Source: Verrucomicrobiaceae bacterium (GTDB lineage: Bacteria > Verrucomicrobiota > Verrucomicrobiia > Verrucomicrobiales > Verrucomicrobiaceae). From it: 64,000 nucleotides of DNA. Shown here in pieces: positions 50 to 41,301 of this stretch; position 1 is the stretch's first letter; every line of letters starts with the position of its first letter. Both the position numbers and the translations under genes were made by a program. Under the pieces are notes generated by a model. That model did not search any database and was not told the DNA's origin. It saw only the letters and a list, made by a program, of their open reading frames with translations. The stretch spans positions 249,632-313,631 of the forward strand of contig JACKQF010000005.1 of the NCBI GenBank assembly GCA_024232965.1, in the 5' to 3' direction.

Positions 50-685
50 GTGCGCCCGAGTCTCGATGCGCCAGCGGTAGAAAAGATGGGGCTCGACCTT
101 GAGCGCCGCACCCGCTGGTTGCGCTTCAATGGAGACCTCATCCTCATGTGGCTGTTCATGGGCGTTACCGTCATGTACTGGCGTTTTGGCGATCATTGGC
201 AGACCCTTGCCGCGCTCGGGCTCCTGCTGTTTTTCATGCTCCAGCAGGCCGTCCTATTCCTCCTCGCCTCCCGCGCAAAAAACGGGGCACCCGTTCCGTG
301 GCGTTACGCCAAGGCGCTCGGCATCCTGTTCTTCCCGCCGCTTTCCATCCGCGCGGCAGACACGTTTGGCCGACTGCAAGAAACCATCCCCCATCCTCTC
401 GGTTGCCTGAAGCTCCTCAAGGAAAAAGTCTGGCAGCAGACCGCCGCAGAAATCTGGAGACACTCCCGCTTTTTACCCGGCTGGCCCACCACAACGGACG
501 GAGCAGACGCCGCCGCAATGCGCAAGTTTTTCCAGAAACACAAAATCGATATCGCAGCACTGGAGACCCCGTCGGATCGCATCCCTGCTGGCGGCATCTA
601 CTGCCCCAGATGCCACGCCACCTACCTCAAAGCGGATACACCCTGCGTCGATTGTGCCGGTGTCGAGCTAAAAACCCGCGACTAA
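50..685 (+). CDS. Hypothetical membrane protein with a C-terminal CxxC...CxxC zinc-ribbon. The frame is open back to the window start, so it is probably 5'-truncated.
   Basis: 211-aa ORF. Hydrophobic helices (LILMWLFMGVTVMYW, LGLLLFFMLQQAVLFLL). C-terminal CPRCH...CVDC motif. No stop upstream in frame back to nt 2. Confidence 0.4.
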   Translation: MRPSLDAPAVEKMGLDLERRTRWLRFNGDLILMWLFMGVTVMYWRFGDHWQTLAALGLLLFFMLQQAVLFLLASRAKNGAPVPWRYAKALGILFFPPLSIRAADTFGRLQETIPHPLGCLKLLKEKVWQQTAAEIWRHSRFLPGWPTTTDGADAAAMRKFFQKHKIDIAALETPSDRIPAGGIYCPRCHATYLKADTPCVDCAGVELKTRD

Positions 686-1086
686 GCCGCCTGCGTCGCC
701 ACCCGCTCCAGCAGTAATCCGTGCGGCACGAAGCGCTCGAAATCCGCGATGTTCCGTGTCGCCACCCGCACGCCATGCGCCATGGCACAGGCCGCGATCA
801 TGCAGTCCGGATGCGAACCACGCCTCCGGCCCGTGTAATGAAAAAGACGCGACGCCTGCTCCGCCTGCTTCTCATTGAAGTCTAGCACCCGCCCGCCGAT
901 CACGGAGGTCACCGCCGCCTTTTGCTCCTTTGAGTGCGGACCATTCAAGAATTCCGACCAAGCAACGGCACTGACCGCCAATTCCTCCCCTGCCAACAGC
1001 CAATCGCGGACCACGGCAATGTGGGGGGAACCGACCGTCACCAGGTCGATGAGAAGGTTGGTATCGAGGTGGATCATGCCTCCCAC
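682..1086 (-). CDS. vapC: PIN-domain ribonuclease toxin, VapC-like
   Basis: 134 aa. N-terminal 'IHLDTNLLIDL' acidic PIN motif. Length and conserved D residues are typical of VapC. Overlaps the upstream small antitoxin-like ORF by 13 nt. Confidence 0.7.
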   Translation of the reverse strand: MGGMIHLDTNLLIDLVTVGSPHIAVVRDWLLAGEELAVSAVAWSEFLNGPHSKEQKAAVTSVIGGRVLDFNEKQAEQASRLFHYTGRRRGSHPDCMIAACAMAHGVRVATRNIADFERFVPHGLLLERVATQAA

Positions 1087-1355
1087 CAGTTGCGCTTGGC
1101 CTCACGCTCAGCGCGCACTTCTTCACGGAAAGCATCCGCATCCTGCACGGTCATCCCGCCGCCGTTTTGCAGCCAATCGAGAGCCTCAAGAGGTTTGGGG
1201 CAATGGTCTTTCATATCTTCTGCCTCCTTCAACTGCCGCACCGCCCGTCGCATGACCTCAGCCTTCGGAACGCCCCATTTCTGGGAAAGCGTATCGAGCA
1301 CCCCAAGGGTGAACTGATCCAAAGCCATACTGGTTCGAGTAAGCGCATAAGTCAT
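1074..1355 (-). CDS. vapB: Antitoxin, ribbon-helix-helix/CopG-like VapB partner
   Basis: 93-aa ORF immediately upstream of and overlapping the PIN gene. Small, charged, with a 'RRAVRQLKEAED' RHH-like segment. Classic toxin-antitoxin arrangement. Confidence 0.55.
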   Translation of the reverse strand: MTYALTRTSMALDQFTLGVLDTLSQKWGVPKAEVMRRAVRQLKEAEDMKDHCPKPLEALDWLQNGGGMTVQDADAFREEVRAEREAKRNWWEA

Positions 1356-1398
1356 GTGGTAACTTGTTACCTCAATTCATCCCTCCTTCAACTGTTTT

Positions 1399-2985
1399 TT
1401 ACTCCCTCCCCAAGTGTCCCGAGACCCGCGATTCCACAAACACCGCCTGCAAAACATCGCCCTGCCCACCCGGAGGAGCCCAGATCGTCAGCAACTGCGG
1501 AGAGCCCTTCCGAGTCGTCACCGAGGACTTCAACTCATTGCCCGGGTTTCCCCCGACACGGAGAACGCTGTCCAGATCCACACTGACTCCATCCGCGCCC
1601 ACCACTGGCCGCACCGTCCAAGACAATCCTGATTCCGGATCTTGGTTGCCGGTAGCCACGGTCGCCGCCAGACCACTCAGGCCTTCCAGCCAGGCACACG
1701 ACACCCATCGGGCATCACCCCTCATGACCCGCTGCAAAAGGGCACCCCACAACTTCTGCTGCCCTGTCACAGGCGATGCATCCCGTTCCAACCGCCGGAA
1801 CTCGGCCGCACTGGTCTCGATGGTGGAAAGATGCAGGCTGATCACCAGCGGCGGTTCCCAGCCGCCGCTGCCCACCCAAGCCTCCACAAGGTCCAAGTTT
1901 TTCGGCCAATTCCTGACCACCAGATAATGGGAGTCGGGAAGCAGGCAGGCATCGCTGCCGACCGGGAACTGGATGCCCTGTTCCATCAGTATTTTCATCA
2001 CTGTGGGAAGGGCGCTATTTCCCGACCTTCCTTCGCTCGGCGACCGCTCGCCCAAGACAAGGAAATCTGGGGGCACCAGGAAACGGCGGAGCTCCATCCC
2101 TGCGGATTCCCTCGGCGCAACGGTGGCGGGCGGCGGCGAAAGTGATTCCCCCGCCACCGCCAACCACTTTTCGAGCAATGGATCTGGCGCTGCAAATGGC
2201 GACACCACTCCGACGGTCAGAAAGATAGCGACACACCTTCCCTTCGAGGCAGGCCAAAGTCCCGCCAAACGTGGTCGCCCAAGCCAAACCAAGGCATCCG
2301 TGGTGAACTCCCCGCCGCCCGGGTCCAGGCCAACCCATAGGCGAGAGCTAACTGTCTCCCGATCACTCGAAAGGATGGGCTCAAGCTCACACTGCAACCG
2401 CTGCTGACCATCCATGATCACTGAGGCCGAATCCGCAGCCACACGTTTTCCGCTCGGCGTCTGGACATCCACAGACGCGACGACACGCGCTCTACCCACT
2501 TTCGACTCATCCTGCAGGGCATCCCTAATCCGGGAATGATCGGCCTCTTCGACGCGGTCTTGGAAAAACTTGGCGGAGGCCTCCACTGCTTCCACCTTGC
2601 AATTCAAGACGGTCGGCTTTGCCCGCAAAAAATCGTCCGCAAACTGCTGCATCACGCACTGGGCAGCGATGGTCGTCCTGACGGTCAACTGATCCCGCTG
2701 CGGACTGGCCAGCATCAACGTCCCAGCAGGCAGTTGGATTGACCTTGCCTCAAAAAACCGCAGCCCAGCTTGGCTCGATTTTGCGATGGTAGCCTGCATC
2801 GCGTCCTGCGACGCACCCAGCGCTGGCGCGACCGGGAACACCTTCTTCAAGACTCCGCCAGGCACCCTGAAAGTCGCGATGGACCACTCAGAAAAGGGAT
2901 CCACCACCGCACTGCTGTTGATTCCGCCAGCGAGGCAGATTCCCCACGGGATCAGGAGCAGGCAGGCCGGAAGGGTGCGCTTCAT
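1399..2985 (-). CDS. Secreted protein of unknown function, paralog A of a tandem pair (secretin-N/STN-like motif?)
   Basis: 528 aa. Signal peptide MKRTLPACLLLIPWGICLAGG. Shares blocks with the upstream ORF (LRRFLVPPDF / LRRFRVSPDF, LVVRNWPKNLDLVEAWV / LVVQNTPENLDLVDAYLEW, LQAVFVESRV / LQAVFLEARI). ATGA start/stop overlap with the upstream gene. Confidence 0.6.
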   Translation of the reverse strand: MKRTLPACLLLIPWGICLAGGINSSAVVDPFSEWSIATFRVPGGVLKKVFPVAPALGASQDAMQATIAKSSQAGLRFFEARSIQLPAGTLMLASPQRDQLTVRTTIAAQCVMQQFADDFLRAKPTVLNCKVEAVEASAKFFQDRVEEADHSRIRDALQDESKVGRARVVASVDVQTPSGKRVAADSASVIMDGQQRLQCELEPILSSDRETVSSRLWVGLDPGGGEFTTDALVWLGRPRLAGLWPASKGRCVAIFLTVGVVSPFAAPDPLLEKWLAVAGESLSPPPATVAPRESAGMELRRFLVPPDFLVLGERSPSEGRSGNSALPTVMKILMEQGIQFPVGSDACLLPDSHYLVVRNWPKNLDLVEAWVGSGGWEPPLVISLHLSTIETSAAEFRRLERDASPVTGQQKLWGALLQRVMRGDARWVSCAWLEGLSGLAATVATGNQDPESGLSWTVRPVVGADGVSVDLDSVLRVGGNPGNELKSSVTTRKGSPQLLTIWAPPGGQGDVLQAVFVESRVSGHLGRE

Positions 2986-4745
2986 TTTTGATCCTCAGCA
3001 AAACGCACGATCCGGGCCTCCAGAAACACCGCCTGGAGCCGATCCTGGCCAACTCCCTCTGGCTTCCAGAGCCCCAGAAAGCGTTTCATTCCACTCAGAA
3101 CCGTCAGCGATGTTTTGAGCGTTGACTGACTGACCCGCATCGCCTGACCAAAGGTGTTCACCGCCAAATTCAGGTCCAGGTTTCGACCATCAGCACCCAA
3201 GATCGGGTCAATCTCCCAGCTCAATCCAGAAGCAAAATTCCCGAGGTTCCAAGACTCATCCAGCCGATGGGGCTTCTTCACCTCTCCACTACCGAAAGCG
3301 ACCCGAGCTCCACTCTGGGTCATCGCCCAAGAAGATTGAACCACGCCCCCGCTGCCATTAGCCGCAGCATTCAGCAGTGATTCCAGCAGTTTCCCCTGGT
3401 CGGCCCCAGCCGGGGACTGGCGCTCCATGTCACGCAGCGTCTTGGCATCTCCCTCAATCACATGCAGAATCAGAGCAATGTCTCTTGGCGAATTGGTGTC
3501 ACCCCACTCCAAGTAAGCGTCCACCAAATCCAAATTCTCGGGTGTATTCTGCACCACCAGCAATCGCGACATGGGTGCCAGCAGCGCAAAGGCACCCTCA
3601 GGAAAAGTGATTCCCTGCGCAGCTAGGATTTCCTGAGGGACCCCGAACTTCTTTTCTGATGCCGCTAAAGTTGGCCCGAATGGATCAGACGACCGGTCAC
3701 CCGCAGGCATGGCGACTTGGCAAAAGTCTGGCGACACTCGAAAGCGACGCAAGGCCATGCCTTCGGGGATTTGCGCTGCGCCTACTGCCGCAGTGCCAGG
3801 TTTCGGCAGGGGGATCACGCTCGCCCCAAATTGATTCACCAGTGCCTCCGCACGACCATCCGATTGAGGGAGCACAGGCAAGATCCTCCCATTCAAAAAG
3901 GCTGCACGAACCCTGCCAAGCGGCCCCTCAGGGACAGGCCAAACATTGATCAAACGCGTCTGACCATTCCGCAATTGACAGCAGACCGTGCTGAAAGTTT
4001 GCCATCCCTCCCGCCCCTCGGCCTGCCCTGTGAAGCCGTACAAATCTAGTGCCGTTTTCACGTCAATGGACTCGTCATCGCGACCCAAGGCGGCATCAAT
4101 CTGCAACTTGAGATGCGGCGGATCTCCCGCAGCCTCACCGGCCACCGTCAGACGGATCTCCTGCCCAGACTTGCCTTCTAGCCGGGTGGAGGTGACGAAC
4201 TGGCACAAACCGGCACCACCCGGCTCGTCAAAGCGCGCCAGCAAAGGACCATGCTCTGCAAGGTCGCCCGCATCCCGCATCACCTGCTGCATAAAAGCCG
4301 CATCGACCTCAACCACATCCAAACGAAAGGCCAGGTTCCTCGGCGTGTGTGGCCACAGCGTCCGCTCCCAGGCCCGCAACAGCCCGTGGCAATGCCCCAT
4401 CGTTCGGACCACCAAGGTCGCCTGGTCGCCATCCATCACCGCCAAAGATCCCTCTGGGAGATGGATACCCTCCTCCGCCAAGGCCTGCGCCACCCGCCCA
4501 TGGTTTTGCCGCAAGATCTCCACGGTTGCTGAGGCACTCGCCTCTTTCCGGGGCATTTCCGGATTCAGCCCCTCACCCGCCGCTGCCCAAAACATCGATT
4601 CCGGTGCCCGATAGCTGCGCACCGACCAGGCGTAGAGATCATCCTCCGCCTTCAATGGCCCACCGGGTATCAGGGAAATGACCCATGCAATCTGAGCAAG
4701 GATGAACGATTTCATTCCCTCCATCCTGCCACGGAACGCGTTCAA
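2982..4745 (-). CDS. Secreted protein of unknown function, paralog B of the tandem pair
   Basis: 587 aa. Hydrophobic N-terminus (MKSFILAQIAWVISLIPG). True start may be the internal Met at 4715. Collinear homology to the downstream ORF. Confidence 0.6.
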   Translation of the reverse strand: MNAFRGRMEGMKSFILAQIAWVISLIPGGPLKAEDDLYAWSVRSYRAPESMFWAAAGEGLNPEMPRKEASASATVEILRQNHGRVAQALAEEGIHLPEGSLAVMDGDQATLVVRTMGHCHGLLRAWERTLWPHTPRNLAFRLDVVEVDAAFMQQVMRDAGDLAEHGPLLARFDEPGGAGLCQFVTSTRLEGKSGQEIRLTVAGEAAGDPPHLKLQIDAALGRDDESIDVKTALDLYGFTGQAEGREGWQTFSTVCCQLRNGQTRLINVWPVPEGPLGRVRAAFLNGRILPVLPQSDGRAEALVNQFGASVIPLPKPGTAAVGAAQIPEGMALRRFRVSPDFCQVAMPAGDRSSDPFGPTLAASEKKFGVPQEILAAQGITFPEGAFALLAPMSRLLVVQNTPENLDLVDAYLEWGDTNSPRDIALILHVIEGDAKTLRDMERQSPAGADQGKLLESLLNAAANGSGGVVQSSWAMTQSGARVAFGSGEVKKPHRLDESWNLGNFASGLSWEIDPILGADGRNLDLNLAVNTFGQAMRVSQSTLKTSLTVLSGMKRFLGLWKPEGVGQDRLQAVFLEARIVRFAEDQK

Positions 4746-4775: not shown

Positions 4776-6290
4776 TTGGTTTCTGTTATGAAGCCGCTCC
4801 TCTTTTTCGTGCTCCTTGGCAGTCTGGCCCACGCGCAGACCTCCGTGCCTGCGCCCTCCATCAAGGCCGGGTTTGCTTACCGGGACATCACCCCTGACAT
4901 CGGTGCGGAGCAACCGGGCGGCTATGGGAAGTCCTATCACAAGACGTTTCACGATGCCTGCAAGGTCCGTGCAGCGGTGTTTGACGACGGCACCAAGAAG
5001 GTCGCGATCATTGGACTGGATGCCCTTGTGGTGCCGCAAAAAGTGGTCACCGATGCCCGGGCGATCATCGCCAAAGAAACCGGCATCCCGCCGGAGGCAG
5101 TCATGGTGGGCGCCTCCCATTCCCATTCATCGGGACCGGTCGGCATGGTGCAGCCTGGCGAATTTGATGATGCCTCCGATTTGGTGAAACGACTGGCCTA
5201 CGAAGAATCTTCCTGCGCAGATCTGGGCTACCTTCTGCGGGTGACGCGAGAGATCGCCAACGCGGTCAAAGCAGCCAACAACTCGCTCGCCCCCACTTTG
5301 GTGGGCTACGGTTTTGGGACCGAAGATAAAGTGGCCTTCAATCGTCGGCTCCGCATGAAGAACGGCCAAAGCTGGAGCCATCCCGGCGCGGGAAACCCTG
5401 ACATCGTCGAATACGCCGGCCCGATTGATCCTCAGGTCGGCGTCATTGGTTCCTGGAGTCTTGAGGGCGAATTGATGGGAGTGATTGTGAACTTCTCCTG
5501 TCATGCGACGACGAATCCAGGCGGGATTTCAGCCAACTGGATCCACTATCTGGAGCAGACGATCCAAGGGGCACTCGATTCAAAGGCACCGGTGGTCTTC
5601 ATGCAGGGAGCCTGCGGGGATGTGACACAGGTGGATAACCTCAGCCCTTACCGCCGCCCTGCGCCGACAGAGTGGGCACAACTTGTCGGCGGTCGAGTGG
5701 GAGCCGAGGCGGTGCGCGTCCTCCTATCCATGCCACGCGGTGGAGAGGCTGCCGTGGACTTCCGCCAAAAGGTGCTCCCGATCCCAAGACGCGCGCCATC
5801 GGCAGCAAAGATCGCAAAAGCGAATGAGATCGTTGCCGCCGGGAGGCCCACTGGCGACACGACGGACTACCTTTTCGCCAAAGAAACGCTGATGTTAGAA
5901 TATCTGGTGAAAACCCGCCCAGTCGTGGACGTGGAGGTGCAGGCCATTCAGGTGGGAGCGGCAGTATTTGCCTCCAATCCAGCGGAATACTTCGTGCAGT
6001 ATGGCCTGGACATCAAAAAGGGCAGCCATTTCCCCTTCACCTTCCCCGTCGAACTGGCCAACGGCTTTGTGGGTTATGTGCCGACCGAAGAGGCTTTTGG
6101 TCCGAATGGCGGCGGCTACGAGACGCGGCTGACGGCCTACAGCAATCTGGAGATCACAGGCGGCACCAAGATAGCCACGGGCTGCATCGAGCTGGCCAAT
6201 GAGTTGAAGCCATCCCCCGTTCCAGAGCGCACCAAAGTTCCGTTTGGAGCCCCTTGGCGTTACGGCAATGTGCCGCCAGAGCTGGATTGA
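4776..6290 (+). CDS. Secreted neutral/alkaline ceramidase-like hydrolase
   Basis: 504 aa. Signal peptide (MKPLLFFVLLGSLAHAQ). Motifs AYRDITPDIG, GASHSHSSGP (compare the ceramidase THTHSGPGG) and GDVTQVDNLSP, collinear with Pseudomonas-type neutral ceramidase. Confidence 0.6.
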   Translation: MVSVMKPLLFFVLLGSLAHAQTSVPAPSIKAGFAYRDITPDIGAEQPGGYGKSYHKTFHDACKVRAAVFDDGTKKVAIIGLDALVVPQKVVTDARAIIAKETGIPPEAVMVGASHSHSSGPVGMVQPGEFDDASDLVKRLAYEESSCADLGYLLRVTREIANAVKAANNSLAPTLVGYGFGTEDKVAFNRRLRMKNGQSWSHPGAGNPDIVEYAGPIDPQVGVIGSWSLEGELMGVIVNFSCHATTNPGGISANWIHYLEQTIQGALDSKAPVVFMQGACGDVTQVDNLSPYRRPAPTEWAQLVGGRVGAEAVRVLLSMPRGGEAAVDFRQKVLPIPRRAPSAAKIAKANEIVAAGRPTGDTTDYLFAKETLMLEYLVKTRPVVDVEVQAIQVGAAVFASNPAEYFVQYGLDIKKGSHFPFTFPVELANGFVGYVPTEEAFGPNGGGYETRLTAYSNLEITGGTKIATGCIELANELKPSPVPERTKVPFGAPWRYGNVPPELD

Positions 6291-6362
6291 CCCCGCCCAA
6301 GTAAATCGGTTGCATGCACCCCAGTGGGTGGCATCCTGTCCGGACGTTCCCACCAATCATAC

Positions 6363-6851
6363 ATGCGCTGCCCTAAATGCGGAAGTTCCCAAGACCGGGT
6401 CATTGATTCCCGCGAGGCTCGCGACGGATACGCCATCCGCCGCCGACGGGAGTGCATGCGCTGCAACTTCCGCTTCACCACTTACGAAATCGTCGAGCGA
6501 GAAGAACTGCGCGTCGTGAAGCGCAATGGCGCACGCGAACCCTTCAACCGCGAAAAACTGATGAGCGGCCTGACCAAAGCCTGCGAAAAACGCCCCGTCC
6601 GCATGGAACAACTCGAACAGGTCGTGGACGAAATCTCCAACGAACTCGAAGAAGAAGGCTACCGCGAAATCCCCGCCAGCGTCATCGGCGCAAAAATGAT
6701 GCGCCAACTGGAGGCCATCGATCATGTCGCCTACGTCCGCTACGCCTCGGTTTACCGCCAGTTTGAGGACGTGGGGGAATTCATCAGCGAGATCAACTCC
6801 CTCGACCAGCGGCGCCCGCGCGATCCTGGCGAGCAGGAGTTATTCGGTTAA
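6363..6851 (+). CDS. nrdR: Transcriptional repressor NrdR (zinc ribbon plus ATP-cone)
   Basis: MRCPKCGSSQDRVIDSR...CMRCNFRFTTYE zinc ribbon followed by an ATP-cone (VVKRNGAREPFNREKL). Start chosen at the Met matching the canonical NrdR N-terminus. Confidence 0.85.
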   Translation: MRCPKCGSSQDRVIDSREARDGYAIRRRRECMRCNFRFTTYEIVEREELRVVKRNGAREPFNREKLMSGLTKACEKRPVRMEQLEQVVDEISNELEEEGYREIPASVIGAKMMRQLEAIDHVAYVRYASVYRQFEDVGEFISEINSLDQRRPRDPGEQELFG

Positions 6852-6867
6852 TCCCGAACCTTTTTGT

Positions 6868-7221
6868 ATGAGCGAAAAGACCATTTTCCAAAAGATCATC
6901 GACCGCGAGATCCCCGCCCCCCTCGTCTATGAGGATGAGTTTTGCGTCGCCTTCAACGACATCTCCCCACAGGCACCGATTCATGTTTTGATCGTCCCAC
7001 GCAAGGTCATCCCTCGGGTCGGAGCAGCAGAACAGGACGATCAGGCAACGCTCGGAGCCCTGCTTTTGGCAGCGGGCGCGGTAGCTCGCAAACTCGGGGT
7101 GGACTCCCGAGAAAAGGGCTTTCGTCTAGCCATCAATAACGGCGTGGACGCAGGTGAGACAGTGCCCCACCTCCATGTGCACCTTTTGGCTGGTCGGCCA
7201 TTGGATTGGCCGCCAGGCTGA
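6868..7221 (+). CDS. HIT-family (histidine triad) nucleotide hydrolase, HinT-like
   Basis: MSEKTIFQKIIDREIPA...HLHVHLL histidine triad. ATG at 6868 follows nrdR by 17 nt. Confidence 0.85.
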   Translation: MSEKTIFQKIIDREIPAPLVYEDEFCVAFNDISPQAPIHVLIVPRKVIPRVGAAEQDDQATLGALLLAAGAVARKLGVDSREKGFRLAINNGVDAGETVPHLHVHLLAGRPLDWPPG

Positions 7222-7223
7222 TA

Positions 7224-8519
7224 TCAGCCCGCGTGCGTCGGCTGCGCTGGTGCCATCATCAGTGAGCCAAACTCTGGCGGCGAAAGCGGGGATACGGCCT
7301 TGTGCAATCTGCTATCAAAGGCCACTCGGAATTTCTCGTCCCGCTCATGCACCAAGGCACGCTGTTCATCAATCAAGTCGGCAGCGCGGCGCATGTGCAT
7401 CTTGAAAGTGGCCTCATCCTTCCGTCCGAAACAAACCAAGCCCAGGTTGTAGTGGACCTCTGCCATACCAATGGCGTCCATCATGTAAGAGTCGGAGTAA
7501 ACACGCAGCACCGCCCGATAGGCGCACTGGGCATCGTCATACCGATTGGTGCGGATGCGGATCGCCGCGATCATTTTCCAAACAACGACCTGAAAGCCTG
7601 CCAGAGGCCGTTGGCTGCGCTCTGACTCGCTCAGGCAGGTCAGCAGTTGCGCCTCGGCATCATGGAATTCCTTCAGCGACATCAGGGCGGAAGCAAGGCA
7701 AATGCGGGCATCTAGGACGAGTCGGGGATTGGCTCCATTGCTGAGAATCTCGATGGTACGGCTAAACGCAGCAGCCGCCTCCCGGTGCCGCAGCGTTTGG
7801 GCGGAAAGCAATCCGTAGGCGAAGTTAAAACGAGCAAGATCCTCTGACTCTTCTTCCGACTTCGCCCGGTGAGCCAGTGCCTCAGCTTGTGCCTGCCAGG
7901 CTGATTCCCACTGCCCTTCGGCAGAAAACACCCGACTCAAATTCGCCAGCAACTCGGAGGTAATCCTCACCTCATCAGGGCACTGGCTTTTCAGTCGGGA
8001 GATCGCCTTTTCCAGCCATTCCCTGGCTTCCGAGTAGCGGTCCAAGGCCTTTAGCAAGAGAGCGTGATTATTCGAATGGCAGGCGCGACTAAGGCGGGTG
8101 TCATCGCCAGCTCGCTCAGCACGCCCTAGGGCCTCAGCGGCCAGCTTTGACAATCGGATCGCCTCCTCATAGGCGCCTTGGCTGATTGCCCTATACGCAG
8201 AGGCTTGCAGTTGGCTCAATTCCAGTTTCCAGGCGGGCTCAACCCGGGCATCACAAAAACGCGCCAATTCGTCGGCCAATGCCATCGCCGTCGATGCGGC
8301 CACACGATCCACCGCCATCTCGTTCTGAGCAGCACCGGAAGAGCGCACTCGGCCCTTGGATGGCGCGATGAAGCGAGTCTTCATCGCACCCGAGGTGAGC
8401 TGGGGCATAACGTCGGTGAGATAAGAGGATGGATCGTTCGGCGGAGGCATGCGGAAATTATAGTCGATATTAAAATATGTATTTTTGAGGTCAGATTCAA
8501 CTAACCTCAATGTATCCAA
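7224..8519 (-). CDS. Tetratricopeptide-repeat (TPR) protein
   Basis: 431 aa. Repeated A/L/Y-rich 34-residue helical repeats (EALAHRAKSEE..., AYGLLSAQTL...). Convergent with the HIT gene. Confidence 0.65.
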   Translation of the reverse strand: MDTLRLVESDLKNTYFNIDYNFRMPPPNDPSSYLTDVMPQLTSGAMKTRFIAPSKGRVRSSGAAQNEMAVDRVAASTAMALADELARFCDARVEPAWKLELSQLQASAYRAISQGAYEEAIRLSKLAAEALGRAERAGDDTRLSRACHSNNHALLLKALDRYSEAREWLEKAISRLKSQCPDEVRITSELLANLSRVFSAEGQWESAWQAQAEALAHRAKSEEESEDLARFNFAYGLLSAQTLRHREAAAAFSRTIEILSNGANPRLVLDARICLASALMSLKEFHDAEAQLLTCLSESERSQRPLAGFQVVVWKMIAAIRIRTNRYDDAQCAYRAVLRVYSDSYMMDAIGMAEVHYNLGLVCFGRKDEATFKMHMRRAADLIDEQRALVHERDEKFRVAFDSRLHKAVSPLSPPEFGSLMMAPAQPTHAG

Positions 8520-8747
8520 TCAATTATGTAAATTGATTGTCACGCAAATGATATTTCGGATTTCCTAACGTTTTTTGCGTATTCACTAATAAGAAATCAA
8601 CCCGAGCAATTGACGCGCTTTTCAAAGGCGACGCAAACGAACTGCTGCGATCCCCACCTGGACCTCCCTCTTCCGCAATTTGCGATTTTCTGTGCGAATA
8701 TTGCGTTGAATTGACATCAAATCCACGATTGCCCATGCTCTGAGGGC

Positions 8748-9248
8748 ATGAGCAGTTTCGGTCTCAGACCCAAGTTTACCCATCTCCTCGAACTTGGTGT
8801 CCAAGAAGCCCGCGACAAGATCGTGGAGAAAGTTAAGAGCGACGGTTCACGCTGCGAGGTGAAAAGTTTTCCAGGATTCGTCTGCTTACGGATCCCTGAA
8901 TCTGACCGGCACTATTGGTCTCCTCGTCTGAACCTGAGCCTGGACGCAACTGACGAAGGCCACACGGTGATTCACGGCACCTACGGCCCGAATGCGAATA
9001 TGTGGTCCTCGTTTCTCTACGGTTACCTCCTGGTAGGATCAGTGGGACTATTCTCCGGATTGCTGGGGGCCTGCCAGAATTGTCTGGGTATGACCCCATG
9101 GGGTTTGTGGGTCTTCGGCGCAATGCTGGCGATCGCCATTGGAATGTACCTCATGGCTCAGTTTGGGCAGAAGCTAGCGGCGCAGCAGACCTTTCTGCTG
9201 CACCAGATTTATGAGGCTGCCGTGGGGCAGCACGTGGAGATCCACTAA
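8748..9248 (+). CDS. Hypothetical small membrane protein
   Basis: 166 aa. Two predicted TM helices (FLYGYLLVGSVGLFSGLLGA, WGLWVFGAMLAIAIGMYLMA). Divergent from the TPR gene across an AT-rich intergenic region. Confidence 0.4.
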   Translation: MSSFGLRPKFTHLLELGVQEARDKIVEKVKSDGSRCEVKSFPGFVCLRIPESDRHYWSPRLNLSLDATDEGHTVIHGTYGPNANMWSSFLYGYLLVGSVGLFSGLLGACQNCLGMTPWGLWVFGAMLAIAIGMYLMAQFGQKLAAQQTFLLHQIYEAAVGQHVEIH

Positions 9249-9253
9249 ACAGA

Positions 9254-10429
9254 TCACTTTTTCTTATCCCACTCCCGCACTTTGATGACAGTCGCGAGCT
9301 GGTTGACCAGGGATAGATCGCCTGGCAGGAGCTTGAATTTTGTCATGTATTGCAACGCTCCGTGGACGCGCATGATCTCGCCCTTCTTAGATTCGATCTT
9401 CTCTGCAGGAGTGTCCGCGATCATTTTCCCAAAGGCCTCAGCCTCTTGGCGCACTTGGTTCCAAGCGCCCTCGTTTGGCGCGTAACAGAGCGATTCCATG
9501 AGGCGGAGCATTTGGTCAACCCCCTGCTTCGTTGCAGCGTCCTCACGAATGGTTTTGGCAATCTCCGCACGCTTGGCCAGGGTGGCTTCTGGGCTCATAA
9601 CACTAGTGTCGCCGCCATCAAGTGCCCGTTTTGGCAGAGGGCGATACCAAATATTGCGATACCGGACCGGATTCCCGTGGTCCTGCAATTTCAGCGGGCC
9701 TTGATCTGGGAAAGGGCGAGGCTTCGAACGGGCTCTATGGCCGCCCCCGCCATCGATTGGAGTGTGGTCCTGGACCAAAACGCCATTCACAAAGACCGTG
9801 AGGTAGCCCGGATCAATCTGTTGTCCGTCTTTGAAGAGAGGCCGACGAAAAACGATATCGTAGACCTGCCAAGCACCTGGAGCCTGGAGGGGGTTGGCCA
9901 TCGGCGGATTGATCCCATAAACCGAACCAGCGAAACCGTCCGCGTAAGTCGGGTTGTTGTAATTGTCTAGAACCTGGACCTCCACCTGGCCCATGAGGAA
10001 GATACCGCTATTGCCGCGACCTTGGCTATCGCCCTTGACCTCGGAAGGCGCGGACCATTCGATGTGCAGTTGGCAATCACTGAACTCCTCCTTGCTACGC
10101 ACGTAGCCAGAACCTGGCACACACTGGAGGGTGCCGTCTTTGACGACCCACTTTGTTTCAACCGTAGGCGTCTTGTCAGCTTCCCAATTCGCGATGGCAC
10201 CCTCGCTGCCATCAAAAAGGACCACGGCGTCAGACGGTGGCTTCCCTGGCTGCTCCTGCGAGCTAAAGGTGCCCGGCTCCACTCGAGCTGGCTGCGCGCG
10301 GTTCATATCGTGAATGGCCCATGGGTGAATCGCATCCGGTGGATCACCGTAGAATGCTCCGTCGGCGAAGACGGACACTGGGATTGCCGAGGCAAGGAGT
10401 GCGAGATGGGACAACGGACGAAGCTTCAT
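9254..10429 (-). CDS. Secreted DUF1080 (3-keto-disaccharide hydrolase / LamG-like) domain protein with an extra C-terminal helical domain
   Basis: Signal peptide MKLRPLSHLALLASAIPVSVFA (start set at the internal Met). DUF1080 hallmarks: WVVKDGTLQC, DCQLHIEWS, NSGIFLMGQVEVQVLD, PGAWQVYDIVFRRP. Confidence 0.65.
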   Translation of the reverse strand: MKLRPLSHLALLASAIPVSVFADGAFYGDPPDAIHPWAIHDMNRAQPARVEPGTFSSQEQPGKPPSDAVVLFDGSEGAIANWEADKTPTVETKWVVKDGTLQCVPGSGYVRSKEEFSDCQLHIEWSAPSEVKGDSQGRGNSGIFLMGQVEVQVLDNYNNPTYADGFAGSVYGINPPMANPLQAPGAWQVYDIVFRRPLFKDGQQIDPGYLTVFVNGVLVQDHTPIDGGGGHRARSKPRPFPDQGPLKLQDHGNPVRYRNIWYRPLPKRALDGGDTSVMSPEATLAKRAEIAKTIREDAATKQGVDQMLRLMESLCYAPNEGAWNQVRQEAEAFGKMIADTPAEKIESKKGEIMRVHGALQYMTKFKLLPGDLSLVNQLATVIKVREWDKKK

Positions 10430-10535: not shown

Positions 10536-13442
10536 TCAGTGCGTGAAGTAAAACTCCTTGGAGTTGAGCAGAGCCCAGAAAAGATCCTCTAGAACCGTCT
10601 GCCGCTGGTCGGGGGACTCGGCAAGAGATGCCTGCACCGCCTTCCACTCTTGATCGTTTGGCTGGCGGCCAAAGGCACGCAGGAAAAGATCCTCGGCGAT
10701 CTCGCGATCTGATTTCTTCTCACTGATGAGACGGGCGACAACGCGTCCTTGCTTGATGCGGTCATTAACAGCGTCACCGTTCATGAGGTGGAGGGCCTGG
10801 GAAAGGGTGGGCTCCATCTTCACTTCGCAAGAGCAGACGGACTCGCGCTTAGCGCGGCCGAAGGTAGTTAGGAAGTAGTTGGAAACGGCACCATCGGCGA
10901 TCTGCACGGCACGCGCGCCGAGCGGCAGCCCCTGGAACTTGTTCGGAGTCTCGGTGATTTGGGAGACAGCGTCCAACAGCACCTCGGCACGCACGCGGCG
11001 GACTTGGGCATGAGAGAAGTTGCGCTTGTCCCCAGCGTTGGTCTCATTGACTTGGGATGAGCGCTGATACGTCATGGAGGTGCAGATATCCCGCACCATC
11101 TTGCGCATGTCGTATTTGTACTCAGTCAGGCGTTTCGCCAACTCTTCGATGAGTTCTGGGTTTGACGGCGGATTGGAGATGCGGACATCATCCACTGGTT
11201 CAACGATCCCCGTGCCGAAGAAGTGTGCCCACATGATGTTGGCGATATTCCGGGCGAAGTAAGGGTTCTTGGGGGAGGCAATCCACTCAGCGAGCACCTT
11301 GCGACGGTCTTCACCGGGCTTAATTTCTGGCGATTCACCACCGAGGAACTTGGGTTTCATAACGGCCTTCGTCAGAAAGTGACGAGCATCCCCGCCCTTG
11401 CTGTTGTAGACGATGACTTCTTGTGGATCATCCGTCGCCTTGCGGCCGATTTGGGTAAAGAAAGCCTGGAAGCTGTAGTAGTCATCCATGGTCCAGCGGT
11501 CAAACGGATGGTTGTGACACTGGGCACACTGGATGCGCATTCCCATGAAGACCTGGGCGATGTTTTCGGTGACCTTGAGAGGATCAAGCTCCATCTGGTA
11601 GTAGTTCACCGCTGGATTTGACACGGTGCCACCTGTCGCAGACAGAAGCTCGATGACGATCTCGTTCAGTGGGACGTTCTTTGCCACACGCTCTGACAAC
11701 CAGTTGTAATACAGCAGCGCATTTTTGTAGAATGGCGGCCGGTTGTTGTTCAGACCGGAGCGAATCTGTAGCAACTCTGCCCATTTCATCACCCATAAAT
11801 CGGTGAACTCTTTGCGATCCAGCAGGCTATCGACCAAAGCCTCACGCTTCTTGGGATTGGCATCCGCCAAGAATGCACGGGTGTCTTCCGCCTTTGGATA
11901 AACGCCGAGCACGTCGATGAACGTGCGGCGAATGAACTCCTGATCGCTACAAACACCTGAGGGAAGGATGCGAAGTTTGTGCAGCTTTTCATCGACAAGC
12001 GTGTCAATGTAATTGGTCTCGGCCAAGTTGGGCCGCTCGTACTGAAGGTTGGCAGGAATGACCAGTGTCTGTGCGGTGGTGCTATAAACGTCGAAACGAG
12101 CCAGCATGAACGCTGCCCCACGATCCCCGGATGTCACAAGCCCATTCTTATCCACAGAAGCGACGGGGTCGTTATTGGACATGAACAATGCCAGCGATGT
12201 CACATCACGATCGGTGCCATCGGAGTAAGTCGCGCGGACGGTGATCTGCTGATTCGCCCCCGCGCCTTCGAGCACCATCTGTTTGGGGAAGATCTCAATG
12301 CCGGTGACCTTGGCGGTATCAGGCTTGTCGTCAGGAGTTCCAGCAGTGATCCACTCCAACAGGGTCTTGTTATACTCGCTGTCTTCTTCAAAGCACTGAT
12401 TGCCGGAGTGGGGCACGGCACCAATGGCCTTTTCGACCAAGCAACTCTCTTCAGGGATCGCCAAGTTGATGCGGCGGCCAGGCATCTCACGTGTGATGCG
12501 GATGAAGTCGCCAGCGGGGTCCATCCCAAAAAGGGAGAGGCGGAATCCGTCCTTACCACGGGCCGCGCCGTGGCAGCCACCTTGGTTACAACCACCACGC
12601 ATGAACACAGGCATCACGTCCAGCCGGAAGGAGATCTGACGCTCCTTCGTGCCATCGGCGATCAAAACCGGAGCCTTTGCAGACATCCCACCCAGGGATG
12701 CAGAAATTTCTGTCGCGCCCTTTTCGATCACGGGACGGAGGGTCACTCCGTCCAGCTTCGCGATTTTGGGATCAGCCACACTGAGGTTAGAGAAGCGAGT
12801 CACGTCGCGTGTGGTAGCATCTTTGAAAGTTGCCATGACTACGACTTGGTGAAAATCTCGCTTGGTCTCCAAAGCGAAGCGATCGGGGAAGATCTCGATG
12901 CGCTGGAGCTGTGGCAGTTTTTTCTGGAGCTCGGCCATCGCCTTGACCTCTTCAGGACTACGATAACGCATCGTCAAGCCTTCAGGAATCTTCGCGCCTT
13001 CCGCGACCCAGCGCTTAAGGTTAGCAATTTCCGCCGGCGTCAGGGGATCACCCTTGGGCGGCATGATGTCGTCGTGACCTTTTGGCAAAAGCACGCGCTT
13101 CACAATTTCGGACTCGTCTGGCTTTCCAGGAACAAGGGCAGCACCGGCTTCACCGCCTTTGATCATGGCCGCAAGATCTGTCATCAGGAGATCTCCCTTT
13201 GTCTTGGATGGGTTGTGACACTCCAAGCACTTGGTTTCCAAGACATGCTGAACCTGACTGCCAAAATCGAGCGCTGCTACGACTGGAACTGGAGCCGGTG
13301 CTGGCTTTACAGCAGGCGCCGATGCTGGTTTTGCGGCAGGTGCAGCAGGAGCCGGTGACGGAGTCGGCACTGGCGCGGTTGCAGCCACTGCAAGGGAACA
13401 GAGGCTAAGAGACCATGCAATGATCGTCGCGGAGGTTTTCAT
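10536..13442 (-). CDS. PSD1-type protein: planctomycete cytochrome c (PSCyt1/PSCyt2), Big_2, DUF1549 and DUF1553 domains
   Basis: Signal peptide MKTSATIIAWSLSLCSLAVA. CLECHNPSKTKGDL (PSCyt1), CNQGGCHGAARGKDGFRLSLFG (PSCyt2), DQEFIRRTFIDVLGVYP (DUF1549), RIQCAQCHNHPFDRW (DUF1553). Confidence 0.85.
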   Translation of the reverse strand: MKTSATIIAWSLSLCSLAVAATAPVPTPSPAPAAPAAKPASAPAVKPAPAPVPVVAALDFGSQVQHVLETKCLECHNPSKTKGDLLMTDLAAMIKGGEAGAALVPGKPDESEIVKRVLLPKGHDDIMPPKGDPLTPAEIANLKRWVAEGAKIPEGLTMRYRSPEEVKAMAELQKKLPQLQRIEIFPDRFALETKRDFHQVVVMATFKDATTRDVTRFSNLSVADPKIAKLDGVTLRPVIEKGATEISASLGGMSAKAPVLIADGTKERQISFRLDVMPVFMRGGCNQGGCHGAARGKDGFRLSLFGMDPAGDFIRITREMPGRRINLAIPEESCLVEKAIGAVPHSGNQCFEEDSEYNKTLLEWITAGTPDDKPDTAKVTGIEIFPKQMVLEGAGANQQITVRATYSDGTDRDVTSLALFMSNNDPVASVDKNGLVTSGDRGAAFMLARFDVYSTTAQTLVIPANLQYERPNLAETNYIDTLVDEKLHKLRILPSGVCSDQEFIRRTFIDVLGVYPKAEDTRAFLADANPKKREALVDSLLDRKEFTDLWVMKWAELLQIRSGLNNNRPPFYKNALLYYNWLSERVAKNVPLNEIVIELLSATGGTVSNPAVNYYQMELDPLKVTENIAQVFMGMRIQCAQCHNHPFDRWTMDDYYSFQAFFTQIGRKATDDPQEVIVYNSKGGDARHFLTKAVMKPKFLGGESPEIKPGEDRRKVLAEWIASPKNPYFARNIANIMWAHFFGTGIVEPVDDVRISNPPSNPELIEELAKRLTEYKYDMRKMVRDICTSMTYQRSSQVNETNAGDKRNFSHAQVRRVRAEVLLDAVSQITETPNKFQGLPLGARAVQIADGAVSNYFLTTFGRAKRESVCSCEVKMEPTLSQALHLMNGDAVNDRIKQGRVVARLISEKKSDREIAEDLFLRAFGRQPNDQEWKAVQASLAESPDQRQTVLEDLFWALLNSKEFYFTH

Positions 13443-13515
13443 GAGGGGCGTTTTTGGGGGAATTTGGGGCGATGAACTTACGCTGCTAGCGAAGGGCTCT
13501 ATCAAGACGGAGTCA

Positions 13516-19628: not shown

Positions 19629-21296
19629 ATGTTTTCCCCAAAAACCGAAGAACTCCTCCTCGAACAACTCCAGGAATCCGGACTCATCACAGAACGCGAC
19701 GTCGCGCATGCCCGAGGAGCCCAAAAAGGGGACGAATCCCTTCTCGAAACCCTGACCAAGACCGGCGTCATTAACGACGAACAAATTGCCCAGACCGTAG
19801 CGGTGAATTCTGGGATGGAATACGTCGATCTCCACGGCTACACAGCCCACCAGGGTCTGAAAGACCTCGTCCCGCTGGAAGTTGCCATGCGCTACAAAGT
19901 CGCCCCACTGGGCGCGGATGGTCCCACTCTGCAACTGGTGGTTTCGGATCCCTACGACTTTGAGACACTGGATGCGCTTCCCCATATTTTACAGCCAGAC
20001 ATCGAGTTCTTCTGCTCCACGCCGAGCTTGATCAAGACCCTCATGGCCAATATTTACGGCAATGAAGCGGTCATGGGCTCTGGCAGCTTCAAAACCGCTG
20101 GCGACAGCGACTCCGGCGATGGCGATGCCCCGGTGATCCGATTGGTCACAAACCTGTTGATGGAGGCCTTCAAAAATCGCGCCTCTGATATTCATATCGA
20201 GCCACTGGAAAAAGACGTCCGCATCCGCTACCGCATCGACGGCGTTCTGCACGACGTTGAGCACCATCCAAAACGCCTTCTGGCCGCCATTATCAGCCGT
20301 ATCAAGATCATGACCGGCACGATGAGCATTGATGAAAAGCGCGTGCCACAGGACGGTCGTATCACCATGTCCTTCAACGACAAGGAACTGGACATGCGCG
20401 TCTCCATCGTCCCCACCAACAATGGTGAGTCGGTCGTCATGCGCGTGCTCGATAAGAGCAGCCTCCGGTTGGGGCTCTCCGACCTGGGCTTCCTCAGCGA
20501 TGACCAATCCCGCTTCGAGCGCCTGCTGACACTGCCAGACGGCATCATTTTGGTCACCGGACCGACAGGTTCCGGCAAAACGACAACCCTTTACGCCTGC
20601 CTCAATTTCATCAACCGTCCCGACCGCAAAATCATCACGGTCGAAGATCCGGTGGAATACGAGCTCGCCGGAATCAACCAGGTGATGGTGAAGGAAGACA
20701 TCGGCATGACCTTTGCCGCCGCGCTCCGCGCCATGCTGCGCCAAGCACCGAACATCATCATGATCGGGGAAATTCGTGATATGGAGACGGCGGGCATCGC
20801 CATCCAGGCATCACTGACAGGTCACTTGGTCTTCAGTACGCTGCACACCAACGATGCCCCCAGCGCCGTCGCCCGTCTCACCGACATTGGGATCAAGCCC
20901 TTCCTCATCGCCTCCGCCGTCCGCGCCATCATGGCCCAGCGATTGGTCCGTAAGCTCTGCGGTGACTGCAAAGCTCCCAGCACCCTGACAGACCGCGAGC
21001 TGCGATCTCTAGGACTAGAGGCATCCCAGATGCTCGGTGCCCACATCATGGGACCACAGGGCTGTAACAAGTGCCGCCAATTCGGGTTCCGAGGTCGTAT
21101 GTGCATCCTTGAAATCTTCGAAATCGACGACGAAGTCCGCAGCATGGTGAACGAAAACCTGACCACACCGCAGCTCCGCCGGCGCGCACGCCAGCTAGGG
21201 ATGCGCACTCTACGCGAAGACGGCATCCGCAAAGTTCTCGCCGGTCTGACCACCGCTGACGAAGTTATCGAGGCCACCATGTCAGACGCAGACTGA
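19629..21296 (+). CDS. gspE: Type II secretion / type IV pilus assembly ATPase, GspE/PilB family (copy 1)
   Basis: 555 aa. N-terminal T2SSE_N-like domains. Walker A GPTGSGKTTTLYA. Asp box, His box (LTGHLVFSTLHTNDA). Tetracysteine CGDC...CNKC. Confidence 0.85.
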   Translation: MFSPKTEELLLEQLQESGLITERDVAHARGAQKGDESLLETLTKTGVINDEQIAQTVAVNSGMEYVDLHGYTAHQGLKDLVPLEVAMRYKVAPLGADGPTLQLVVSDPYDFETLDALPHILQPDIEFFCSTPSLIKTLMANIYGNEAVMGSGSFKTAGDSDSGDGDAPVIRLVTNLLMEAFKNRASDIHIEPLEKDVRIRYRIDGVLHDVEHHPKRLLAAIISRIKIMTGTMSIDEKRVPQDGRITMSFNDKELDMRVSIVPTNNGESVVMRVLDKSSLRLGLSDLGFLSDDQSRFERLLTLPDGIILVTGPTGSGKTTTLYACLNFINRPDRKIITVEDPVEYELAGINQVMVKEDIGMTFAAALRAMLRQAPNIIMIGEIRDMETAGIAIQASLTGHLVFSTLHTNDAPSAVARLTDIGIKPFLIASAVRAIMAQRLVRKLCGDCKAPSTLTDRELRSLGLEASQMLGAHIMGPQGCNKCRQFGFRGRMCILEIFEIDDEVRSMVNENLTTPQLRRRARQLGMRTLREDGIRKVLAGLTTADEVIEATMSDAD

Positions 21297-21359
21297 TCCA
21301 GCGCCCACACTCCCCTTTTCTAACCTTTTCTCAACAGCGCACCCCCTCTCCCTATTGCC

Positions 21360-23018: not shown

Positions 23019-23140
23019 ATTTGTGAACTATGTGTTAGAAAACAAATAAGTGATGGACATTCCCGCCCATCTCCCAGTATTCTCGACCCACTAAGTGCTG
23101 ATATTTTCCTCTTTTCACTCATAATCGACAGCAGTCTCTT

Positions 23141-24424: not shown

Positions 24425-24450
24425 AATTCTGGTGAACAACTGCCGCAACC

Positions 24451-25104
24451 TTGATGTCCATTCATCGTATGCAAAACACGACCTCCAAAGGCCTCAGACT
24501 CGCACGCAGAGGATTCACTCTGATTGAACTTCTCGTCGTCATTGCCATCATCGCCCTGCTGTCGTCGCTAACTATCGGTGCTTTCTCGTACGCTACCAAA
24601 GCGGCCGCGAGAAATCGCACCGAGGCGACCTTTGCAGCCATCAAACTTGGACTCACCTCTTACTTCTCCGAGTACAAGGAGTATCCAGAACCAGCCCAAC
24701 CGGATCAAACTATATCCATAGGATCAAAGCGTTACACAAGCGGTGGGGCCGCAATGCTCTATCAAGCCATGAGTGGTGATGGCAATAATGCCATCCTCAT
24801 CGGTGCCGGCGAAAGTGGCGAAAGTTCAAATGGCCAATTCACCAAAGAAGAGGCAGCCCGCACCATGATGCGAGACATGCCACCAACCACTTGGAAAAAG
24901 ATTGAGAACACCTACGTGATGGTAGATGGCTTCAACCACCCCTTCCAATATACCCACGGCGGCAATGGGACCAATGACGATGCGGTCAATCCTAGCTCCT
25001 ATGACCTATGGTCTTACGGCGAGGATGAGCAAAACATCAATCAATCCAGTCACGCTGCTAAAATTGATCCCAAAACGAGCGCCAAGTGGATCAAGAACTG
25101 GTGA
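24451..25104 (+). CDS. Pseudopilin / type IV pilin-like protein with a prepilin N-terminal cleavage/methylation domain
   Basis: RRGFTLIELLVVIAIIALLSS matches the G|FTLIE prepilin signature. Small secreted protein. Confidence 0.75.
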   Translation: MMSIHRMQNTTSKGLRLARRGFTLIELLVVIAIIALLSSLTIGAFSYATKAAARNRTEATFAAIKLGLTSYFSEYKEYPEPAQPDQTISIGSKRYTSGGAAMLYQAMSGDGNNAILIGAGESGESSNGQFTKEEAARTMMRDMPPTTWKKIENTYVMVDGFNHPFQYTHGGNGTNDDAVNPSSYDLWSYGEDEQNINQSSHAAKIDPKTSAKWIKNW

Positions 25105-30937: not shown

Positions 30938-30955
30938 CCCAACACCCCCTACCCT

Positions 30956-33046: not shown

Positions 33047-33079
33047 GCAGGGAACGCCGATACCCCATCGGCAATCGCT

Positions 33080-41234: not shown

Positions 41235-41301
41235 GCGGGGCAGCAATACGTTGCGAACGGGGCATCCTTTGCAGTGGACGATTTCATCAGACTGTGGCTG
41301 A

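Follow-up and report, generated by a model that had tools for sequence, protein, structure and literature searches.

What is encoded by the two overlapping genes near one end of a 64,000-nucleotide stretch of Verrucomicrobiaceae DNA? The stretch, which we call the window, comprises positions 249,632 to 313,631 of contig JACKQF010000005.1 (assembly GCA_024232965.1), and the genes, which we call A and B, occupy 1399-4715 of its minus strand. The initial annotation, made from the sequence alone, described secreted tandem paralogs with a motif like that of secretin N-domains. We found that A and B are fast-evolving members of an unnamed branch of the secretin superfamily, derived from the Amuc_1098-type PilQ lineage of the Planctomycetes-Verrucomicrobia-Chlamydiae (PVC) bacteria. 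Very probably, both proteins are tandem secretin homologues that lack the beta-lip.

Two overlapping genes encode secreted paralogs

The two open reading frames (ORFs), their overlap at 2985-2982, and the putative signal peptides are all present as originally described:

2982..4715, minus strand: gene A, a 577-amino-acid secreted protein with two modules, each an N3-like domain followed by a lip-less secretin core
1399..2985, minus strand: gene B, a 528-amino-acid secreted paralog of A with the same two-module layout
2982..2985, minus strand: ATGA overlap of the stop codon of A (TGA) and the start codon of B (ATG), with GAGGA upstream of the ATG of B
4647..4715, minus strand: putative signal peptide of A, MKSFILAQIAWVISLIPGGPLKA followed by EDD, read from the sequence; residues 2-14 form a helix in the AlphaFold2 model
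2929..2985, minus strand: putative signal peptide of B, MKRTLPACLLLIPWGICLA followed by GG, read from the sequence; its Cys is outside a canonical lipobox

The longest ORF for gene A (2982..4745, 587 amino acids) begins at a TTG at 4745. The likely start is the ATG at 4715, which yields a normal "MKSF..." signal peptide and has a purine-rich GGAGGG stretch just before it. The database version of A (P0001, 577 amino acids, 100% identical) also starts at this ATG and is named "hypothetical protein" from a Verrucomicrobiaceae metagenome-assembled genome (MAG). The exact 528-amino-acid form of B is missing from a collection of 15 billion proteins, where its best match is 71% identical, whereas the collection does include A from this MAG, at 100% identity. 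B may have been called differently or omitted in the deposited annotation.

Judging from their residues, the N-termini of A and B are plausible Sec signal peptides. We rejected a lipoprotein anchor for B, as the Cys lies outside a lipobox and an Ala-Gly site for signal peptidase I lies downstream of it. The end of this signal peptide fits the pattern C(L/I)A followed by GG, which recurs in the orthologues P0009 and P0010.

By BLASTP, A and B are 28% identical over 567 columns (E = 3e-47), and the alignment is collinear from end to end. This agrees with the homology first noticed by eye, at slightly below the 30-35% identity estimated then. All three of the shared motif blocks that had been quoted are found in both proteins (A/B): LRRFRVSPDF/LRRFLVPPDF, LLVVQNTPENLDLVDAY/YLVVRNWPKNLDLVEAW, and LQAVFLEARI/LQAVFVESRV. 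The pair with its 4-base overlap is restricted to a narrow clade and is kept in every lineage of the clade that we examined (L001-L003 and L120-L123). Scans for promoters and terminators gave no signal that exceeded chance.

Each protein contains two secretin-like modules

Both proteins are internally duplicated: the halves of A match each other with E = 7e-15, and the halves of B with E = 6e-8. Each module begins with an N3-like domain, with the motifs G-I-x-(F/L)-P-x-G and L-x-V-x-(N/R)-T, and continues with about 155 residues of beta structure. We modeled A with AlphaFold2. A run with 9 sequences (predicted local distance difference test, pLDDT, of 69) was superseded by a run with an alignment of 85 sequences, which gave a pLDDT of 87.2 and a predicted template modeling score (pTM) of 0.85. 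In each module of this model, a beta-alpha-beta-beta-alpha domain is followed by a long strand, two short helices, three beta-hairpins, and a final strand. This is the two-sheet core fold of the secretins, preceded by an N3 ring-building domain; the latter has the KH-like beta-alpha-beta-beta-alpha fold of N1-N3 domains (Pfam PF03958) and lies directly upstream of the core. The parts of the modules are:

4347..4628, minus strand: A module 1, N3-like domain (residues 30-123), from the secondary structure of the model and a profile alignment to the N3 region of PVC secretins
3876..4340, minus strand: A module 1, lip-less secretin core (residues 126-280), from the model and a profile alignment
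3756..3875, minus strand: linker between the modules of A, with a conserved helix (residues 288-300) and a proline-rich stretch, from the model and the family consensus
3492..3755, minus strand: A module 2, N3-like domain (residues 321-408), the region that matches NF042912 (the Amuc_1098 family)
3006..3482, minus strand: A module 2, lip-less secretin core (residues 412-570), ending in LQAVFLEARIV, from the model and the match to BfpB
2200..2889, minus strand: B module 1 (about residues 33-262), placed by alignment to A
1423..2097, minus strand: B module 2 (about residues 297-521), which contains LRRFLVPPDF, YLVVRNWPKNLDLVEAW, and LQAVFVESRV

In module 1 of A, the N3-like domain has the motif LPEGSLAV..ATLVVRT and consists of a strand (30-36), a helix (61-81), two strands (91-95 and 100-106), and a second helix (107-123). 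The core begins with a long strand (126-138), continues with two short helices and three beta-hairpins, and ends with a strand at 268-280. In module 2, the N3-like domain holds LRRFRVSPDF (the first strand), GITFPEGAFA, and LLVVQNTPENLDLV.

Several comparisons link these modules to secretins. With both models, the top 24-29 Foldseek matches were secretins exclusively, so the suggested relationship to secretins holds up at the level of the fold. The figures tabulated for known secretins were 13.2 for phage pIV, 12.2 for RcpA, 11.9 for PilQ from Vibrio cholerae, 11.7 for both XcpQ and ExeD, 11.0 for InvG, 9.3 for BfpB, and 8.5 for PilQ from Pseudomonas aeruginosa. When the family profile was compared to the sequences in PDB, the secretin BfpB was the sole match. 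A profile of 170 modules matched a profile of 18 true PVC secretins with 99.7% probability (E = 8e-27); this profile-profile alignment spans the N3-type domain, the first core strand, both hairpins at the gate positions, and the "DGqTVVLGG" strand. Finally, in NCBIfam, A and B match part of NF042912, the "Amuc_1098 family type IV pilus outer membrane protein" (about positions 361-476 of 805), with 69.5 bits and 38.8 bits, respectively, as compared to a cutoff of 750 bits.

Relatives of A and B come closer to Pfam's Secretin model, whose threshold is 27.5 bits. The two- and three-module relatives P0004 and P0005 score 23.5 bits, and single-module relatives exceed the threshold with 42 bits, over profile positions 2-129 of 169 only. 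When we scanned A and B themselves against Pfam at E ≤ 1, we found nothing useful, just a chance fragment of FliK; in particular, there was no match to TPR.

The initial annotation had likened the "LVVxNTPENLD" block to secretin N-domains and to STN domains. The first comparison was apt: the block belongs to an N3-type domain that is homologous to that of the Amuc_1098 PilQ family. STN (N0-type) domains gave no match. The initial annotation had also stated that A and B have no C-terminal secretin beta-barrel. This was wrong, because the fold and the profiles indicate two diverged secretin cores in each protein. What is missing is the beta-lip and the C-terminal motif.

The lip and the C-terminal motif are missing

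The secretin protomer has 4+4 strands (PMC8563730, PMC7545093), and the outer-membrane region of secretins is made up of the lip and the amphipathic helix lip, or AHL (PMC7545093). The beta-lip comprises residues 199-234 of pIV (36 residues) and 51-80 residues in bacterial secretins (PMC8563730). In the profile alignment, a glycine-rich segment of about 90 additional residues separates the first core strand of true PVC secretins from the pre-gate helix. At this position, the model of A has only short helices (139-149 and 156-160 in module 1; 424-433 and 441-452 in module 2), and in an alignment of 85 family members, this distance is uniformly short. In other words, the hairpin that would insert into the outer membrane from this position is missing from A and B. 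The gate-position loops are themselves truncated in both A and B, and in module 2 of B, the loop at the Gate-1 position is nearly deleted (VATGNQDPESGLSW).

Secretins also have a conserved C-terminal motif just before the last strand, which is ILGDIPVVGRLF in P0158 and is also present in pIV. This type of motif is absent from A, from B, and from the family consensus. Similarly, the Pfam Secretin matches of the short relatives stop at profile positions 120-129 of 169, short of the C-terminal motif. At their N-termini, A and B lack the TPR/N0 region of PilQ. Neither protein has a C-terminal aromatic beta-signal, and they do not resemble closed single-chain barrels that depend on the beta-barrel assembly machinery (BAM).

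Relationship to known secretins

The closest known family is the Amuc_1098-type PilQ (NF042912), with the minimal secretins RcpA, BfpB, and pIV coming next. Amuc_1098 is an abundant PilQ protein from Akkermansia muciniphila, with 907 amino acids, an N-terminal TPR, and a C-terminal secretin domain, and it was located to the outer membrane by immuno-electron microscopy (PMC4960237). This family and A/B have the same taxonomic range and share the N3-like domain (the RxFxVPPDF strand, the DPF linker, GIxFPxGS, and LxVxNTxEN), and the first core strand and gate hairpins are recognizably homologous. But Amuc_1098-type proteins have a TPR/N0 part, a lip segment of about 90 residues, and the ILGDIPVVGRLF-type motif, all of which are missing from A/B. 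Also, they contain the N3-plus-core unit once per chain, while A/B contain it twice and some relatives contain it three times. Members of NF042912 are expected to score above 750 bits over their full length and to have an N-terminal TPR (BAM-like) region and a single, C-terminal canonical secretin domain, and A/B fall outside this definition.

The canonical secretins (PF00263), such as GspD/XcpQ, PilQ, InvG, and phage pIV, are homo-oligomers of subunits that each have a single core and a beta-lip (PMC8563730). In A/B, by contrast, a short helix replaces the lip, each chain combines two cores without the most conserved C-terminal motif, and the genes lie outside of any operon for a type II secretion system (T2SS), type III secretion system (T3SS), type IV pilus (T4P), or phage. 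The minimal secretins RcpA (from the Tad pilus) and BfpB (from the type IVb pilus) differ from A/B as well: they have a single core, span the membrane, are encoded within pilus operons, and are assisted by the partner lipoproteins TadD and BfpG, none of which is true of A/B. Single-module "mini-secretins" (from loci L034, L026, and L012) also have an N3-like domain and a core without the lip or the motif. Their modules are not fused: each gene encodes one, and L034 and L026 have several paralogous genes side by side. In the literature, we found no description of secretin cores that are repeated within one polypeptide or of lip-less secretins.

Distribution of the family

Word-indexed searches for homologues found just 8 and 2 relatives, with one more from a profile query; the family became visible only with an exhaustive HMMER search over 1.84 billion cluster representatives (at 50% identity). 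This search gave 2270 matches with E ≤ 1e-3, 929 with E ≤ 1e-10, and 266 with E ≤ 1e-30. The weakest matches are presumably, in part, ordinary PVC secretins with the same N-domain. The family comprises at least 266 clusters. It has no Pfam model, and its members are "hypothetical protein" wherever they are named. Most of the best 150 matches are two-module proteins of 600-720 amino acids or three-module proteins of 850-1100 amino acids.

We also scanned one genome per species for the pattern L[VIL]V[RQA]NTPEN, which was taken from a 16-sequence subset, so the range given here is a lower bound. Full-length members were found only in Verrucomicrobiota, including Verrucomicrobium sp. BvORR106 and BvORR034, Prosthecobacter, and MAGs. 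The labels of these MAGs are Verrucomicrobiaceae, Verrucomicrobiales, Verrucomicrobiia, or Verrucomicrobiota, besides one "Akkermansia" and one unclassified "bacterium" (L027). Matches confined to the N-domain fell in canonical secretins of 820-890 amino acids from Chthoniobacter, Victivallales, and Lentisphaeria. The sole fragment outside of the PVC bacteria lies on a 2.3-kb contig (L025) from a MAG labeled as Burkholderiales; given the size of the contig, this is probably a binning error. Using tblastn, we found no relatives in phage and plasmid collections, so we rejected a phage or plasmid origin.

Several genomes contain multiple members at separate loci. For instance, Prosthecobacter JBGAGS01 (GCA_044226605.1) has both L006 and L019. 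Single-module genes can be in tandem: there are three in a Victivallales MAG (L034 8399-11810; 425, 361, and 342 amino acids) and two in a Verrucomicrobiia MAG (L026 9545-11923; 421 and 352 amino acids). The neighbors of these arrays are housekeeping genes (enolase, Glu/Gln-tRNA synthetases). In L012, two genes on the minus strand at 884-3606 overlap by 4 bases and encode a 634-amino-acid protein without a Pfam match and a 273-amino-acid protein that matches Pfam's Secretin model (41.8 bits, profile positions 4-120). This pair shares its contig with a two-module family gene and a GspE-E-F cluster.

Full-length secretins of the Amuc_1098-like type (about 790-880 amino acids) are also encoded by adjacent pairs of genes in Verrucomicrobiia and Victivallales genomes (L029 8822-13862, L030 815-5882, L031 252-5319, and one pair each in L033, L036, and L037). 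Such pairs are a hint that alternative or hetero-oligomeric secretins could be a common feature of PVC bacteria.

A and B evolve faster than their neighbors

To quantify evolutionary rates, we compared 1399-4715 of the window with two related lineages, L122 and L001. A and B have amino acid identities of 63-72% and ratios of nonsynonymous to synonymous substitution rates (dN/dS) of 0.22-0.38. Neighboring genes have identities of 84-99% and dN/dS of 0.007-0.09. For instance, between L122 and the window, GspE is 98% identical, A is 71% identical, and B is 63% identical. The dS values of A and B are no higher than those of their neighbors, so we rejected the replacement of alleles as the cause of their low identity.

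A dN/dS of 0.22-0.38 implies that A and B are under purifying selection. From these comparisons, they are functional genes that evolve several-fold faster than their neighbors at the protein level. Rapid evolution is common among envelope proteins, and it also fits a structural role with loose constraint.

Gene neighborhoods

Divergent from A are a gene at 4776-6290 and then the genes for NrdR and a HIT protein. The product of the first was initially described as a secreted ceramidase-like enzyme; all that we found was a weak match to PF04734 (E = 6e-4, 19 bits), below the cutoff of 32 bits. In L001, a block at 5884-9753 lies between A and this gene. The block encodes a BlaI/BlaR1-like pair (Penicillinase_R and Peptidase_M56), a 192-amino-acid protein, and an S41 peptidase, and it is absent from the window. 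Because it intervenes in one of the relatives, the ceramidase-like gene is not a fixed partner of A.

More broadly, we took about 20 family genes and clustered all ORFs that lie up to 8 kb away. A short-chain dehydrogenase is common to the loci from Verrucomicrobium and Prosthecobacter, but we rejected it as a partner because it reflects ordinary local synteny. The only other output of the clustering was antisense shadow ORFs, which we also rejected. A and B are not within a gene cluster for a T2SS, T3SS, T4P, Tad pilus, or filamentous phage.

The window does contain part of a type II-like machine:

19629-25104, plus strand: GspE-GspE-GspF-pseudopilin cluster, with two paralogous GspE/PilB-type ATPases (both with MshEN), a GspF/PilC protein, and a pseudopilin

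We found no secretin, GspC/L/M, or prepilin peptidase for this cluster in the window. L012 and many metagenomic contigs, some of them from human gut metagenomes, show this E-E-F-pilin order as well. The initial annotation proposed that A and B partner with this cluster, and we checked this from both sides. The cluster is 15 kb away from A, with unrelated genes on both strands in between. In the flanks of 80 metagenomic loci around orthologues of GspE (58-98% identity; flanks of up to 10 kb, with many contigs being shorter), there were no family members or secretins. Conversely, about 18 other family loci had no GspE/F within 8-10 kb. The only other family locus near such a cluster is L012, with a separation of 4 kb and no other synteny; the intervening genes encode a NUDIX hydrolase, a sulfate permease, and, on the opposite strand, a protein without an assigned identity. 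We therefore rejected a partnership with GspE/F as a general rule. An association is unproven and, at best, loose.

A possible ring beneath the outer membrane

A canonical secretin is a ring of 12-17 subunits in the outer membrane that resists heat and SDS (sodium dodecyl sulfate). What could lip-less, fused modules do? We suggest that the modules of A and B assemble into a pseudo-symmetric ring under the outer membrane, possibly with both A and B in the same ring, and we give this proposal about an even chance of being correct. Because the N3 domain and the secretin core are both oligomerization devices, we infer that the modules would pack side by side, like neighboring protomers of a secretin. 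A double-walled ring could then be built from fewer chains: 6-8 two-module chains or 4-5 three-module chains would provide the 12-16 units that are usual for secretins. In the clade that has both genes, A and B would be produced from the overlapping genes in similar amounts, and the ring would be a mixed one. Because the lip is absent, the ring would be expected in the periplasm or at the inner surface of the outer membrane, without crossing the latter. There it might act as a gate, a collar, or a scaffold for a partner that is encoded elsewhere. The existence of proteins with one, two, or three modules, along with tandem arrays of single-module genes, is the pattern of fusion and fission that is expected for parts that contact each other.

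Several observations weigh against this proposal. A and B have no match to Pfam's Secretin model (PF00263), even at E = 1 (the gathering score is 27.5 bits). Their dN/dS is roughly 3-50 times that of their neighbors (mostly 5-10 times), which fits weak constraint. The clustering of nearby ORFs found no conserved neighbor or secretion-machine gene, and so genomic context does not support any particular role. Also, the modules might pack as neighbors in a ring or as a closed pseudo-dimer, and the high pTM does not discriminate between these. The main rival explanation is one that we consider rather unlikely: A and B could be monomeric or dimeric proteins, periplasmic or released, whose modules pair as a closed pseudo-dimer and were co-opted for a role that does not involve a ring, such as a scaffold, a binding protein, or a structural protein of the envelope. 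The pTM of 0.85 implies a confidently fixed arrangement of the two modules, the lip and the C-terminal motif are gone, the gate-position loops are truncated, no machine genes are nearby, and constraint is relaxed, all of which would suit such a protein. However, packing as ring neighbors would give an equally high pTM, and N3 domains and secretin cores are known only as ring-forming units (PMC8563730). The closed two-module unit is also a poor fit to the one- and three-module forms and to the tandem single-module arrays.

The other alternatives seem less plausible. It is improbable that A and B provide the GspE-GspE-GspF-pseudopilin cluster with its outer-membrane secretin. That cluster does lack its own secretin in the window, and L012, which is from an unrelated genome with nothing else syntenic, also has a family gene near such a cluster. 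But unrelated genes intervene in both cases, the survey of 80 GspE loci and about 18 other family loci, with flanks of up to 10 kb, did not find the two together, and A/B have neither a lip to cross the outer membrane nor the N0 domain through which canonical secretins contact the inner-membrane platform. Furthermore, Verrucomicrobia have a canonical PilQ of the Amuc_1098 type that is available for this job (PMC4960237). We think it very unlikely that A and B are decaying, functionless remnants of duplicated secretin genes, as might be supposed from their elevated dN/dS, their lost lip, motif, and gate-position loops, and the missing database entry for B. Both the window and three other lineages, at 63-72% identity, have intact reading frames and the 4-base overlap; dN/dS is clearly below 1; and hundreds of family members are intact with conserved motifs. 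Least credible of all is that A and B are periplasmic proteins with secretin-N-like domains only, and no barrel-forming part. It is true that neither protein matches Pfam's Secretin model and that their most conserved motif is within the N-domain, but the evidence from folds and profiles for two cores per protein is strong and specific, and relatives reach the Secretin threshold.

If A and B do form a ring, then the family might represent an architectural class of "concatenated" secretins. In this class, two or three lip-less protomers would be fused, and in the clade of A and B, two different co-translated chains would form a hetero-oligomeric, pseudo-symmetric ring that does not itself cross the outer membrane; this would be an envelope structure specific to PVC bacteria and independent of the type II, III, and IV machines. 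We offer this broader idea tentatively, as possible but doubtful. In the solved secretin structures that we compared, the ring is made from one kind of single-core subunit and is inserted in the outer membrane via the lip. A lip-less family with multiple cores would be a natural experiment on ring stoichiometry, on the function of the core away from the membrane, and on the envelope structures of PVC bacteria. At least 266 sequence clusters, all "hypothetical" where named, would also gain a name and a hypothesis that can be tested. If the proteins turn out not to oligomerize, then the secretin core would have been co-opted, a finding that would be less striking but nonetheless new.

Other genes in the window

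Downstream of B, at 682-1355 (minus strand), is a vapBC-type toxin-antitoxin pair. The genes for the ribbon-helix-helix (RHH) antitoxin (1074-1355) and the PIN toxin (682-1086) overlap by 13 bases, and their position is kept in all of the related lineages.

Three genes at 30233-38062 (plus strand) encode proteins of 234 and 696 amino acids without Pfam matches, followed by a 1660-amino-acid protein in which an AAA domain and DUF7902 accompany DUF3686 ("ATPase involved in DNA repair", E = 1.5e-177). For this block, the only PADLOC matches were weak, LmuB-like ones (E = 6.5e-5). It may be an uncharacterized module for defense or repair.

Lastly, the window encodes two large PSCyt/PSD1 (DUF1549/DUF1553) proteins, at 10536-13505 and 39072-41408 (minus strand). 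These Pfam families are named after planctomycetes, and one of the two proteins also has cytochrome c and Big_2 domains.

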